64,000 nucleotides of DNA from Clostridia bacterium (GTDB taxonomy: Bacteria; Bacillota; Clostridia; Oscillospirales; Acutalibacteraceae). Positions 32,532 to 36,204 of the stretch are shown here, in pieces; the first letter of the stretch is position 1; each line of letters begins with the position of its first letter. The notes beneath the pieces were generated by a model. That model ran no database searches and was not told the DNA's origin. It was given only the letters and a program-made list of their open reading frames with translations. The stretch covers positions 38,346-102,345 of the forward strand of contig JAFSDM010000042.1 in NCBI GenBank assembly GCA_017436225.1, in the 5' to 3' direction. Both the position numbers and the translations under genes were made by a program.

Positions 32532-33146
32532 ATGTGTAAAAATTACGGATATATAAGGGTTTCCAGCACCGACCAAAATGAAGACAGACAGCTTATTGCA
32601 ATGAAAGAAAAAGCCGTACCAAAAGCAAATTTATATATTGACAAGCAGTCGGGTAAGGATTTTGAGCGTCCGCAGTATAAAAAAATGGTTAAAAAATTAA
32701 GGGCGGGAGATTTGCTTTACATACTCAGCATAGATAGATTGGGGCGTAATTATGAGGATATTCAAAAACAGTGGCGGATTTTAACAAAGGATATTGGTGT
32801 TGATATTTGCGTAATAGATATGCCCCTTTTAGATACCCGAAACGGCAAGGATTTAATGGGTACCTTTATTGCAGATTTGGTGCTGCAAATACTTTCTTTT
32901 GTAGCGCAAAGTGAAAGAGAAAACATAAAAAAGCGACAAGCTGAGGGCATTGCCGCTGCAAAAGCAAGGGGTGTGAAATTTGGCAGACCCGAAAAAATGC
33001 TTCCCAAAGATTTTGCAAAAATAGTTAAAAAATGGGAACAAAAAAGACTCCCCTTTTCGGAAGCCTTAAAGCTATGCAATGTAAGTGAATCAACCTTTTA
33101 CCGCAGACTAAGAGAGTATAGAATAAAACACCTTGATGAATTGTAG
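32532..33146 (+). CDS. small serine recombinase (resolvase/invertase family, Hin/Gin/Pin-like)
   Basis: 204 aa. Has [11 protein letters not shown] (catalytic Ser region), [18 protein letters not shown] and GRP motifs, plus a C-terminal HTH. RBS GGAGG. Confidence 0.9.
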
Positions 33147-33177
33147 AAAAAGGTTTGTGCAAATCGAAGGTTTTTTC

Positions 33178-33228
33178 GTAGGGAACGACCTCAAGTGTCG
33201 TTCCGCAAAAATCATCGCAAATTTGCGG
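33178..33228. repeat. copy 1 of a ~50-bp hairpin module (GGAACGAC-N7-GTCGTTCC ... AAAATCATCGCAAATTTG)
   Basis: Seen directly in the sequence. The CCGCAAA/TTTGCGG stem plus TTTT may also terminate the recombinase transcript. Confidence 0.6.
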
Positions 33229-33316
33229 TTTTACGGCCGTCCCCGGACGGGGAAGGTGGGTTTTGTGCGGCGAATAGCCGTGCAAAAGTCGGAAGGGGAG
33301 ATTGTTTGTATTTTAT

Positions 33317-33366
33317 GCGGAACAACACATAGGTTGTTCCCTACAATATCATTACAAATTTGTGCG
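33317..33366. repeat. copy 2 of the ~50-bp hairpin module (GGAACAAC-N7-GTTGTTCC ... AATATCATTACAAATTTG)
   Basis: Direct repeat of copy 1. The G-to-A change in the stem is matched by C-to-T in the partner arm. Confidence 0.6.
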
Positions 33367-33406
33367 ATAAACTCCAATTTATAGGTATAACTATAAATAA
33401 AAACAG

Positions 33407-33432
33407 CTACCAAAAGGTGTACTTTTTGATAG
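33407..33432. repeat. left hix-like crossover site CTACCAAAAGGT-GT-ACTTTTTGATAG
   Basis: 26-bp imperfect palindrome with central dinucleotide GT. Embedded in the hairpin AAACAGCTA...TAGCTGTTT followed by a T-run. Confidence 0.7.
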
Positions 33433-33472
33433 CTGTTTTCGTGTGTCTAATTTTAGCACATATTCCCTTAAA

Positions 33473-33500
33473 TTGCAATACTTTATACATAATTTGTAAT
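33473..33500 (+). promoter_or_regulatory. candidate sigma-A promoter inside the invertible segment (ON orientation)
   Basis: TTGCAA (33473-33478), 16 nt spacer, TGTAAT (33495-33500). There is no promoter-like sequence in the 36 bp between the right site and the ATG. Confidence 0.4.
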
Positions 33501-33544
33501 GTTTTATTAGGAATATTTACCATATGATTTTCAAACAACCACTT

Positions 33545-33570
33545 TTATCAAAAAGTACACCTTTTGATAA
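33545..33570. repeat. right hix-like crossover site TTATCAAAAAGT-AC-ACCTTTTGATAA
   Basis: 26-bp imperfect palindrome. Central AC is the reverse complement of the left site's GT. Confidence 0.7.
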
Positions 33571-33606
33571 AAGTATCTAACAAATTACGTAAGGAGAGTT
33601 TTGTGA

Positions 33607-36204
33607 ATGAAAAAAATACTTTCAATTCTTTTAGCTGCGGTTTTAATTGTAACCGCCATGCCGCTAGGCGCTTTTGAATTTAAAGCAAGTGCAGCAACTG
33701 AAGGTTATTATACCTATACAGTATCAAACGGCGAAGCAACCATTACAGATGTTAGTACGTCAATTAGCGGTGCTGTAACTATTCCCTCCACCTTAGGCGG
33801 TTATCCCGTAACCGGTATAGGTGATTATGCATTTTATCGTTGCGAAAACCTTACAAGTATAACCATCCCAAATAGCGTAACAAGTATAGGTGATATGGCA
33901 TTTTATCATTGCAGAAGCCTTATAAGCGTGAGCCTTGGTGATAGTGTAGCAAGTATTGGTGAAATGGCATTTTGTGATTGCTCTAGCCTTACAAGCGTGA
34001 CCCTTGGTGATAGTGTAACAAGTATAGGTAATTATGCATTTTATAATTGCTCTAGCCTTACAAGCGTAAGCCTTGGTGATAGTGTAACAAGTATAGGCGA
34101 ATATGCATTTGGGGGTTGCGATAGCCTTGCAAGCGTGAGCCTTGGCAATAGCGTAACAAGTATAGGTGATAGTGCATTTTCTCTTTGCGAAAACCTTACA
34201 AGTATAACCATACCTGATAGCGTAACAAGCATAGGCGAATATGCATTTGAATATTGCGATAGCCTTGCAAGCGTGAACCTTGGCAATAGCGTAACAAGTA
34301 TAGGCGATGAAGCATTTTATGGTTGCTATAGCCTCACAAGCGTGAGCCTTGGCAATAGCGTAACAAGTATAGGTGATAGTGCATTTTCTCTTTGCGAAAA
34401 CCTTACAAGTATAACCATACCTGATAGCGTAACAAGCATAGGCGAATATGCATTTGAATATTGCGATAGTCTTGAAAACATAACTATCGGCGATAGTGTA
34501 ACCAGTATAGGTAAATGGGCATTTTATGGTTGCGATAGCCTAAAAACCGTATATTACCGTGGAAAGGTAGAAGATAAGACAAAAATTACAATCGGTCCAT
34601 ACAATTCTGACCTTACTAACGCCGCTTGGTATTATAACAGTTGTATTGGTAGGGCTGAGCATACGTACACTGGTATTTGTGATGCAGATTGTAACGGATG
34701 TGGCAATACTCGTACCGCACCTGATCACGTATATGATAACGATTGCGATGATAGCTGTAACGGATGTGATGCGGTTCGCACAATAACTCACGTCTATACA
34801 AATGATTACGATGTAACTTGTAATCTTTGTGAAAAAACCAGAACAATTACTGGAACAACTGGTTACTGCACTTGGACTCTTGATGGCACAGTTTTAACCA
34901 TAAGTGGTAATGGTGCTATGGAAGATTTCTCCCACATTAGTAGTTTTCTGAATTTAGAAATAACAGAAGTTATTATTGAAAATGGTGTAACAAACATTGG
35001 CAATTATGCATTTTGTTATTGCAATAACCTTGAAAGCATAACTATCGGCAATAGCGTAACAAGTATAGGTGACGGGGCATTTGAAGATTGCAATAGTCTA
35101 ACCAGCATCACCATCGGGGATAGCGTAACAAGTATAGGTGACGGGGCATTTGAAGATTGCAATAGTCTAACCAGCATCACCATCGGGGATAGCGTAACAA
35201 GAATAGGTTCTTATGCATTTTATTCTTGCGATAGCCTTGAAAGCATAACCATACCCGATAGCGTAACAAGTATAGGTTCTTATGCATTTTATGATTGCTA
35301 TAGCCTTACAAGCGTGAGCCTTGGCAATAGTGTAACAAGTATAGGTTCTTATGCATTTTATAATTGCGATAGCCTTACAAGCATAGTCATACCCAATAGT
35401 GTAACAAGTATAGGCGAATATGCATTTATTTATTGTAATAGTCTCAAAAGCGTAACTATAGGAGATAACGTAATTAGTATAGATAAATTTGCATTTTGGG
35501 GTTGCGATAGCCTAACAAGCATAACCATCCCAAATAGTGTAACAAGTATAAGCAATTCTACATTTTCGCACTGCAAAAGCCTTACAAGTATAACTATCCC
35601 AGATAGTGTAACAAGCATAGGTATGTATGCATTTGCAGATTGTTATAGTCTAACAACCGTATATTACCGTGGAAGTGAAGATGATAAGGAAAAAATTTCT
35701 ATAGATTCTAGTAATTCCTATCTTACCAACGCTACATGGTATTATAACAGTTGCGTTGGTAGTGCAAATCATACTTATGATAACGCTTGTGATGCTGATT
35801 GTAATGTATGCGGTTTTGTTCGCAAAGTAGAACACACCTTCACAAACGAGTGTGATGGTGAATGTGATATTTGTTACGAAACACGTAAAGCACCTCACAA
35901 ATACGATAGCGTATGCGACCCAGAATGTAATTTATGCGGTAAAAAGCGTTCCGTTCCCGAACACACCTACGGTGACGATAAGGTTTGTGACGTGTGCGGT
36001 CACAAAAACTTCGTTTTAGGCGATATTAACGGCACAGGCGAAGTAGGGCTTGACGATGTTACTGTTTTATCTAAATATTTAGCAGGATGGAACGTAGATG
36101 TTAACGAAGACGCTTTAGACGTTAGCGGTGATGGAGTTGTAAATCTTTTTGATTTAGTTCGCTTGTCGCAGTACATTGCCGGTTGGGACGTTACACTTCA
36201 CTAA
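33607..36204 (+). CDS. large secreted LRR (BspA-type) protein with Cys-rich spacers and C-terminal dockerin
   Basis: 865 aa. Signal peptide is nearly identical to that of the 395-aa paralogue. Two blocks of 23-aa LRR units are each followed by CxxxCxxC-rich spacers. C-terminal dockerin (GDINGTGEVGLDDV... / DVSGDGVVNLFDLV...). RBS AAGGAGAG. Confidence 0.85.
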   Translation: MKKILSILLAAVLIVTAMPLGAFEFKASAATEGYYTYTVSNGEATITDVSTSISGAVTIPSTLGGYPVTGIGDYAFYRCENLTSITIPNSVTSIGDMAFYHCRSLISVSLGDSVASIGEMAFCDCSSLTSVTLGDSVTSIGNYAFYNCSSLTSVSLGDSVTSIGEYAFGGCDSLASVSLGNSVTSIGDSAFSLCENLTSITIPDSVTSIGEYAFEYCDSLASVNLGNSVTSIGDEAFYGCYSLTSVSLGNSVTSIGDSAFSLCENLTSITIPDSVTSIGEYAFEYCDSLENITIGDSVTSIGKWAFYGCDSLKTVYYRGKVEDKTKITIGPYNSDLTNAAWYYNSCIGRAEHTYTGICDADCNGCGNTRTAPDHVYDNDCDDSCNGCDAVRTITHVYTNDYDVTCNLCEKTRTITGTTGYCTWTLDGTVLTISGNGAMEDFSHISSFLNLEITEVIIENGVTNIGNYAFCYCNNLESITIGNSVTSIGDGAFEDCNSLTSITIGDSVTSIGDGAFEDCNSLTSITIGDSVTRIGSYAFYSCDSLESITIPDSVTSIGSYAFYDCYSLTSVSLGNSVTSIGSYAFYNCDSLTSIVIPNSVTSIGEYAFIYCNSLKSVTIGDNVISIDKFAFWGCDSLTSITIPNSVTSISNSTFSHCKSLTSITIPDSVTSIGMYAFADCYSLTTVYYRGSEDDKEKISIDSSNSYLTNATWYYNSCVGSANHTYDNACDADCNVCGFVRKVEHTFTNECDGECDICYETRKAPHKYDSVCDPECNLCGKKRSVPEHTYGDDKVCDVCGHKNFVLGDINGTGEVGLDDVTVLSKYLAGWNVDVNEDALDVSGDGVVNLFDLVRLSQYIAGWDVTLH
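34132..34469 (+). repeat. 131-bp perfect direct repeat inside the LRR gene (34132-34262 = 34339-34469)
   Basis: Identical by direct comparison. The 207-bp offset equals three 23-aa LRR units, so it is in frame. Confidence 0.85.
35051..35201 (+). repeat. perfect 69-bp tandem repeat, about 2.2 copies, inside the LRR gene
   Basis: 35051-35119 equals 35120-35188, and the third copy matches for 13 nt. One unit encodes one 23-aa LRR. Confidence 0.85.

Follow-up and report, generated by a model that had tools for sequence, protein, structure and literature searches.

How is the gene of a secreted surface protein transcribed when its start codon is separated from one of two inverted palindromes by little more than a ribosome-binding site (RBS), and when a small serine recombinase is encoded upstream of these palindromes? 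This question is raised by a locus in a stretch of 64,000 nucleotides (hereafter the window) from a Clostridia bacterium of the Acutalibacteraceae (assembly GCA_017436225.1, contig JAFSDM010000042.1, positions 38,346 to 102,345 of the forward strand). An earlier interpretation of the letters alone (hereafter the sequence-only reading) had proposed a promoter-carrying serine-recombinase inversion switch in front of a gene for a leucine-rich-repeat (LRR) protein with a dockerin. The present comparative analysis supports this proposal, with the promoter as a predicted element. With a probability of about 80%, the locus is a self-contained phase-variation cassette that is OFF as assembled, would be turned ON by inversion, and is a member of a large clade of recombinase-plus-switch modules. 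Its main parts are listed below; on re-reading, the coordinates and sequences of sites and genes given by the sequence-only reading all matched.

32532-33146, plus strand: small serine recombinase gene, 204 aa, with an N-terminal resolvase catalytic domain and a C-terminal helix-turn-helix (HTH); outside the invertible segment
33407-33432, unstranded: left recombination site, CTACCAAAAGGT-GT-ACTTTTTGATAG; two 12-bp half-sites around the crossover dinucleotide GT (33419-33420)
33421-33556, unstranded: invertible segment, 136 bp between the crossover dinucleotides (138 bp centre to centre)
33545-33570, unstranded: right recombination site, TTATCAAAAAGT-AC-ACCTTTTGATAA; inverted copy of the left site, crossover dinucleotide AC (33557-33558)
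33591-33598, plus strand: RBS AAGGAGAG, 8 nt before the ATG
33607-36204, plus strand: LRR/dockerin gene, 865 aa, for a secreted BspA-type leucine-rich-repeat protein with a C-terminal type I dockerin; the regulated gene

In the proposed mechanism, dimers of the 204-aa recombinase would bind the two 26-bp sites, cut at GT 33419-33420 and AC 33557-33558, and invert the 136 bp in between, a segment that is predicted to bear one outward sigma-70-type promoter. In the assembled state, this promoter would fire leftward into the hairpin and U-run at the left site, and the LRR/dockerin gene, being without a promoter of its own and having only an RBS after the right site, would thus be OFF. In the inverted state, the promoter would come to lie at about 33499-33527 and would transcribe through the right site into the LRR gene with a leader of approximately 73 nt, corresponding to ON. 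The cassette would be one of a large clade of similar modules in gut Clostridia, situated before varied, mostly cell-surface genes. This scheme draws on the anatomy of the cassette, the conservation and covariation of its sites, their helical phasing, the geometry of the promoter, and natural inversion in two relatives. As is characteristic of a promoter inverton, the locus combines inverted-repeat crossover sites, a predicted one-way internal promoter, and a nearby recombinase.

A first line of evidence comes from the sites themselves. A repeat search returned two arms of 24 nt (33408-33431 and 33546-33569) that are 96% complementary. These 24-nt cores match at 23 of 24 positions as inverted copies, versus 19 of 24 as direct copies, so that the asymmetric positions of the two sites reveal an inverted orientation, although each site is itself palindromic; the palindromic, inverted pair with complementary centres GT and AC that had been described before is thereby confirmed. 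The hairpins formed by the sites extend beyond the 26 bp (33400-33439 and 33541-33574). A degenerate site pattern had exactly two matches in the 64 kb with up to three mismatches (expected number 0.01), and two or more matches were obtained in none of 100 shuffled sequences. The genome-wide scan for further site pairs that the sequence-only reading had called for was carried out for the 64-kb window, where just the two known sites occur. The space of 36 bp from the right site to the ATG does contain only an RBS, as had been noted.

The family of the recombinase provided the material for comparison. More than 8000 protein clusters matched the enzyme at E ≤ 1e-20, the best 120 of which were all at least 80% identical to it, and at least 547 relatives were confirmed in species-representative genomes of GTDB, the best match among these being 84% identical. 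From the latter, the 80 best loci were kept, with recombinases 72-84% identical to that of the window. They belong to Acutalibacteraceae, Oscillospiraceae, Lachnospiraceae, Ruminococcaceae, and unclassified Clostridia, and stem mostly from gut metagenome-assembled genomes, with a few isolates. The same palindromic site pair was found downstream of the recombinase gene in 64 of the 80 loci. Its first site begins a median of 21 bp (typically 10-40 bp) after the recombinase stop codon, versus 260 bp in the window. The half-site consensus of the family, derived from 268 half-sites, is YTNTCAAAARGT, and the left site of the window fits it.

Within this family, the central dinucleotides are complementary in 66 of 67 site pairs, the combinations being six in number (GT/AC 39, AC/GT 19, AA/TT 6, TT/AA 1, AG/CT 1, and GC/GC 1). 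Shuffling of the partners in 10,000 trials yielded on average 28.8 and at most 43 complementary pairs, versus the 66 observed. Since a crossover dinucleotide in inverted sites requires complementary centres, this covariation marks the palindromes as recombination sites. Furthermore, the distances between the two sites fall into the classes 126, 136-137, 146-147, 156-157, 166-169, and 176-178 bp, that is, in steps of about 10.5 bp. The periodicity (R = 0.71 at 10-10.5 bp) exceeded the maximum of 0.39 reached in 5000 null trials, and the steps are evident from the unprocessed spacings themselves despite the kinship of the loci. The commonest spacing in the family, 136-139 bp, includes the 138 bp of the window, which removes the earlier caveat that such a segment is short for a Hin-type invertasome. 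Centre covariation, helical phasing, and the inversion directly observed in relatives constitute three independent lines of evidence, which show that these are recombination sites acting in a constrained synapse.

Indeed, both orientations of the switch were found in nature at two related loci. At locus P0107, of which the recombinase is 81% identical to that of the window, the metagenome contigs L006-L010, L013, and L014 display one orientation and L011 and L012 the other; the inner 145 nt between the site centres are exact reverse complements, and the flanks of 1234 nt and 2019 nt are identical. Similarly, at locus P0067, L125 is flipped with respect to L126-L129, these being independent metagenome contigs with identical flanks. 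The mixed orientations anticipated by the sequence-only reading were hence encountered in contigs of two relatives, whereas the window copy and five contigs of the same species are in one orientation. In addition, the megahit contigs L107, L108, L110, and L112 of locus P0023, assembled from different samples, end at the same base, namely the centre of the right site (...CGTCAAAAGGT), and 7 of the 80 GTDB loci end at most 250 bp after the recombinase gene. These contig ends suggest that the assembly graph breaks at the switch. For mixed orientation they are suggestive only, and as proof of it they were rejected, since the contigs stop at a point other than that at which the two orientations begin to differ.

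The direction in which the segment would be transcribed was deduced from the following two elements.

33450-33478, minus strand: switch promoter TTGCAA-17-TAAAAT (-35 at 33478-33473, -10 at 33455-33450) with an extended -10 TG (33458-33457), from the promoter scan
33399-33440, minus strand: extended hairpin and U-run, terminator-like for the leftward switch transcript (OFF); 17 pairs and tail TTTTTATTTATAG, from the terminator scan

A promoter of the form TTGnnn-17-TAnAAT, often with an extended -10 TG, facing outward and separated from a site by 17-19 nt as counted from the end of its -10, is present in 55 of the 63 species-representative loci. It points toward the recombinase gene in 45 loci, toward the downstream gene in 7, and both ways in 3, in which the stronger candidate faces the recombinase; the remaining 8 have none by the strict rule. 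In the flipped contigs L011, L012, and L125, it faces the downstream gene. In the window, 18 nt separate the end of the -10 from the 24-nt left core (17 nt if the whole 26-bp site is considered), and the promoter is directed at the recombinase gene, with the LRR gene behind it. Because this conserved promoter lies on the minus strand and points away from the LRR gene, the assembly represents the OFF state rather than the ON state. Besides the sites and the promoter, the family comparison revealed no conserved block in the segment.

The leftward transcript that would start from this promoter folds at -24.5 kcal/mol into a 17-bp hairpin followed by UUUUUAUUUAU, a structure built from the left site and its flanks. 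A hairpin at the left site had previously been regarded as a terminator against read-through from the recombinase gene. A plus-strand hairpin does exist (about -22 kcal/mol), but only a short T-run follows it, which makes it a weaker stop, and the terminator scan flagged the minus strand only. When the segment was inverted in silico, the promoter moved to 33499-33527 and the transcription start to near 33534, with a 73-nt leader to the ATG that is free of strong hairpins. This succession of promoter, RBS, and ATG is a sensible one. The inversion moves the inner flank away, so that the stem extension and the U-run are lost; at the locus of the window, the terminator would be present in the OFF state only. 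The inverted configuration carries the junction sequence ...CTACCAAAAGGTGTACTTTTTGATAAAAGTGGTTG..., and ...ACAGCTACCAAAAGGTGTACTTTTTGATAAAAGTGGTTG... and ...CACGAAAACAGCTATCAAAAAGTACACCTTTTGATAAAAGTATC... are the junctions unique to the ON state in silico. An OFF-state terminator is not a feature of the family: in L006, the left site is located 8 bp after the stop codon without an A-run before it, so that the OFF promoter would read antisense into the recombinase gene there.

Does the copy in the window still turn? Its flipping would be expected from the behaviour of its relatives, and the arguments to the contrary concern first of all an element situated between the recombinase gene and the left site.

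33178-33344, unstranded: nested palindrome, 167 nt, GC-rich, between the recombinase stop codon and the left site

This element has a GC content of 51%, versus 40% for the window, and fold z-scores of -7.9 (plus strand) and -7.6 (minus strand) relative to shuffled sequences. It was found only in contigs of the same species, and neither the relatives nor the remainder of the window contain it; a scan of the JGI metagenomes for its arms gave 0 matches. Searches of Rfam with the whole window at gathering thresholds and with 33100-33650 at permissive thresholds produced chance-level matches only, by which a known RNA family was ruled out for the sites as well as for the GC-rich element. The latter is probably an insertion and not a part of the switch; it may represent a small insertion element or else a structured RNA of unknown type. 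Its presence explains why the recombinase gene stops 260 bp before the left site, a distance that the sequence-only reading had given correctly.

Several observations weigh against a working switch in this species. A flipped copy of the window switch was not found: seven metagenome contigs carry an identical recombinase, and the five of these that were compared with the window (0-4 base differences over 5 kb) share its orientation, and their intergenic region is identical to that of the window. The contigs with the two 98%-identical recombinases, P0002 and P0003, do not extend as far as the switch. In the JGI metagenomes, the left-junction pattern had 0 matches in either orientation, the organism appearing only in ENA and NCBI data. 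One half-site of the window (CTACC...) has a C where 242 of the 268 half-sites have a T, and, should the switch depend on an accessory element close to the 3' end of the recombinase gene, the 167-nt insert could impair the window copy. As to the comparative evidence, the compared loci are akin to one another, so that the covariation and phasing statistics overstate their independence. Moreover, the promoter and the terminator are consensus predictions, and the raw number of promoter-like sites in the region is not above that in shuffled sequences; the argument for the promoter therefore rests on positional conservation across relatives.

These observations lend some substance to the alternative that survives best, namely that of a decayed or locked switch, with no inversion in this species, palindromes serving as terminators or insulators, and an LRR gene that is silent or expressed by read-through. 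It fits the single orientation of the window and its five conspecific contigs and the 167-nt element behind the recombinase gene; in addition, decayed relatives exist (P0059, with an insertion sequence (IS) at the position of the right site), and eight species-representative loci lack a recognisable promoter. However, the recombinase open reading frame (ORF) is intact with its catalytic motifs, the sites fit the consensus and have complementary centres, their spacing is that of the most frequent class, and the promoter is complete. Consensus assemblies give the majority orientation only, and most relatives were assembled OFF too (45 versus 7). Long distances between gene and first site also occur elsewhere with intact site pairs (315 bp in L076 and 105 bp in L056). 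The switch is not visibly put out of action by the insert or by the rare C in the half-site; in combination with the single orientation of the assemblies, these features keep a locked state alive as an unlikely explanation.

Slightly less probable still is the ON orientation that the sequence-only reading had assigned to the assembly, in which inversion would silence the LRR gene and expression would be driven by a promoter on the other strand.

33473-33500, plus strand: promoter TTGCAA-16-TGTAAT of the sequence-only reading; weak, unreported by the promoter scan, at most a basal promoter

These hexamers do exist and do point at the LRR gene. Furthermore, assemblies in the ON state occur, as seven species-representative relatives as well as loci P0023 and L125 were assembled with the promoter facing the gene. 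Yet position 2 of the -10, a nearly invariant A, is a G in TGTAAT, and the distance from the end of this hexamer to the right site is 45 nt, versus 17-19 nt between the family promoter and a site. It has no conserved plus-strand equivalent, the plus-strand candidates of relatives being weak and at variable positions, and it shares its palindromic -35 hexamer with the minus-strand promoter. The latter, TTGCAA-17-TAAAAT with TG, matches the family geometry exactly, in sequence as well as in its fixed distance to the site, which places the window copy in the OFF state. Of the earlier promoter call, the hexamers and their direction hence stand, and the strength and the conservation do not.

The weakest alternative, that of res-type sites of a Sin-like transposon or plasmid resolvase, or of operators with the recombinase as repressor, without programmed inversion, is highly improbable and was rejected: the enzyme has Sin/Tn552 Bin3 as its best solved-structure match (E 2e-29) and recombinase-family proteins of Staphylococcus and Enterococcus plasmids as its nearest annotated plasmid relatives (52-54% identical), but 66 of 67 site pairs are inverted rather than direct and covary at their centres, inversion was directly seen in two relatives, and the cassette has housekeeping neighbours, no transposase found nearby, and no further conserved subsite.

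Returning to the phase-variation cassette, its two genes are well defined. The recombinase ORF matches the resolvase family (PF00239, E 8e-29, 101 bits) and, weakly, HTH_23 at its C-terminus (E 2e-4), and its YGYIRVSS and DRLGR motifs align with those of Sin and gamma-delta resolvase. It therefore possesses the catalytic domain with nucleophile serine and DRLGR and the C-terminal HTH by which small serine recombinases are recognised. The 865-aa product of the regulated gene contains LRR_5 repeats (E 3e-200), and its N-terminus MKKILSILLAAVLIVTAMPLGAFEFKASA reads as a signal peptide. The dockerin that had been noticed at its C-terminus scores above the Pfam threshold (Dockerin_1, residues 804-857, 34.3 bits versus a cut-off of 22.9, E 3e-8). 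No cohesin was found among the 20 ORFs of the window that were scanned. In the same-species contig L002 (5076-7604), the gene encodes 842 aa versus 865 aa in the window; the difference of 23 aa would fit one repeat unit and suggests strain-level variation in repeat number, as judged from the lengths of the unaligned genes. The seemingly truncated LRR gene in L003 merely reflects a scaffold gap of 100 N. The cassette sits in an ordinary chromosomal neighbourhood between uvrA and yebC, with the housekeeping genes uvrA, yebC, and trkAH as neighbours; yebC follows the LRR gene on the opposite strand. A 669-aa ORF adjoining uvrB (16255-18264, minus strand) has no Pfam family at E ≤ 1e-5.

The genes behind the switches were surveyed by scanning the first downstream gene of 59 cassettes (58 relatives and the window). 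They encode proteins with LRR (4), dockerin (3; the gene of the window being counted in both), Listeria-Bacteroides repeat (4), and SLH (2) domains, as well as VWA, SHIRT, Cna_B, and collagen-repeat proteins, a sugar transferase, DltA-like AMP-binding enzymes (4), and protein kinases (3). Cargo functions are thus mostly those of the cell surface, as phase variation would predict. Given this diverse, mostly surface-related cargo, which includes LRR and dockerin proteins, the gene of the window is typical of the family and not unique.

The relatives also displayed several variations on the arrangement. Locus P0059 (L113-L122) is a decayed cassette with the left site only, in the same arrangement in 10 independent contigs; an rve-family IS transposase gene replaces the right site and the cargo, approximately 10-1150 bp after the recombinase stop codon. 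In L097, three sites occur (at 5679, 9029, and 9175), all with a palindromic AT centre, one following the recombinase gene and the other two forming a 146-bp pair 3.3 kb downstream; they could permit a small and a large inversion, or place a second promoter under control in trans. An AbiEi/AbiEii pair is found upstream of the recombinase gene in L104, L106, and L125. Two cassettes per genome were encountered on one contig of fecal_MAG_56 (L030 and L068) and in RGIG4223 (L031 and L040), and L088 carries a second, 61%-identical recombinase gene in tandem (5726-6313). The AbiE neighbours, the paired cassettes, and the tandem recombinase are consistent with a mobile or duplicating module. Within a phage collection, the closest recombinases (55-62% identical) are those of the unannotated 'Bacteriophage sp.' contigs MT836372.1, MT835780.1, and MT836284.1, which stem from human faeces.

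A more far-reaching interpretation may be put forward tentatively, at somewhat less than even odds. The cassette would then be an uncharacterised, horizontally spread, portable module, consisting of a Sin-like, Fis-independent invertase and sites 126-178 bp apart on the same helix face, OFF at rest, with its promoter antisense into the recombinase gene in most relatives, and placed before many surface genes; in the window, it would render a dockerin-anchored LRR protein phase-variable. By analogy with Sin, an HU-type bending protein might close the loop of about 112 bp, which is a reasonable guess.

Such a module would be of interest for several reasons. To a large part, the surface heterogeneity of gut bacteria arises from invertible promoters, and the well-studied cases are those of Bacteroides, Enterobacteria, and C. 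difficile (Clostridioides difficile). The present module offers a system of one enzyme and one switch for Clostridia of four families that are abundant and poorly tractable, with cultured hosts among the relatives. The cassette is carried, for instance, by Evtepia gabavorous KLE1738, Fusibacillus kribbianus YH-rum2234, Cuneatibacter sp. NSJ-177, Lacrimispora sp. 210928-DFI.3.58, and Pseudoflavonifractor sp. Marseille-P3106. As most cassettes were assembled OFF, their downstream genes look promoterless in annotation. It would also imply that dockerin-anchored components of the cellulosome or amylosome type can be phase-variable, which bears on adhesion, fibre degradation, and evasion of immunity and phages. 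Mechanistically, it raises the question of how, in the absence of Fis, a serine invertase brings two strictly helix-phased sites at a distance of about 137 bp into synapsis. Finally, being compact (approximately 0.75 kb for gene and switch) and native to Gram-positive bacteria, it could be put to use as an element of genetic memory.

Serine invertases and invertible promoters belong to textbook knowledge, and the cassette can be compared with several known systems. A first likeness is that to the Din invertases, which depend on Fis and an enhancer, namely Hin/hix (the flagellar switch of Salmonella), Gin/gix, Cin/cix, and Pin/pix, which likewise consist of a small serine recombinase with a C-terminal HTH and inverted 26-bp sites of the form 12-2-12 with complementary centres. 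The sites of phage Mu, read directly, are TTATCCAAAACC-TC-GGTTTACAGGAA and TTCCTGTAAACC-GA-GGTTTTGGATAA, with the same relation between the centres (TC/GA), and the half-site TTATCAAAAAGT of the window shares 9 of 12 positions with TTATCCAAAACC of gix. The hix/gix architecture ascribed to the sites was thereby borne out. The enzyme itself is not of the Hin/Gin type that had been assumed, as it is 30% identical to Gin and has Sin/Tn552 Bin3 as its best solved relative (E 2e-29, versus 4e-21 for gamma-delta resolvase and 3e-15 for Gin); the Din invertases are much closer to one another than 30%. The Hin segment carries an outward promoter too. In contrast with the Din invertases, which flip segments of about 1-4 kb, the recombinase gene is located outside a segment of 126-178 bp. 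Fis is not known in Firmicutes, and no enhancer-like conserved block was found in the segments of the family.

A second likeness is that to Mpi and the capsular-polysaccharide invertons of Bacteroides fragilis, in which a serine recombinase of a gut commensal flips short promoter segments, shorter than 250 bp, for surface structures (PMC10403206). One Mpi acts in trans on many promoters, whereas each switch of the present family has its own adjacent recombinase, and the site motif and the promoter type differ; against the NCBIfam model of Mpi (NF009949), the recombinase scores 44 bits, far below the cut-off of 272. Thirdly, the flgB and cmr switches of C. difficile are short invertible regulatory segments in a member of the Clostridia, flanked by inverted repeats of about 21 bp and located upstream of surface or motility operons (PMC5386303, PMC7446863). 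RecV of C. difficile is a tyrosine recombinase that acts in trans on several switches, whereas a serine recombinase is encoded beside a single switch here.

Bulk surveys have catalogued invertons in Clostridia (PMC11892184, PMC11602134); the survey of the hCom2 community reports Clostridia-dominated groups, one tied to tyrosine recombinases and the other mostly from Blautia wexlerae (PMC11892184). In the literature text accessible to the search, which did not extend to the sequence tables of the surveys, neither a description of this recombinase clade, its site motif, or its phasing nor a case of phase variation of a dockerin protein by invertible DNA was found, and the hix half-site string and the 12-mers of the site motif matched only unrelated papers. 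The kind of system is known, while the clade, the geometry, and the cargo appear undescribed; the cassette is real, widespread, and experimentally tractable, and is not a new principle.

Lastly, the closest solved structure is that of Sin/Tn552 Bin3 (PDB 2r0q), a resolvase of staphylococcal plasmids, which matches over the full length and is likewise a small serine recombinase of Firmicutes. Sin resolves directly repeated res sites with an accessory site II, whereas the present cassettes have two single inverted sites, inversion as the outcome, and no accessory site detectable by family comparison. The architectural protein on which Sin relies is Hbsu/HU and not Fis, which, by analogy, suggests how the small loop may be bent here. 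The recombinase works like Hin and Gin, but stands outside the Hin/Gin clade and the Mpi family, and is a member of a separate Firmicute clade that took on promoter inversion.

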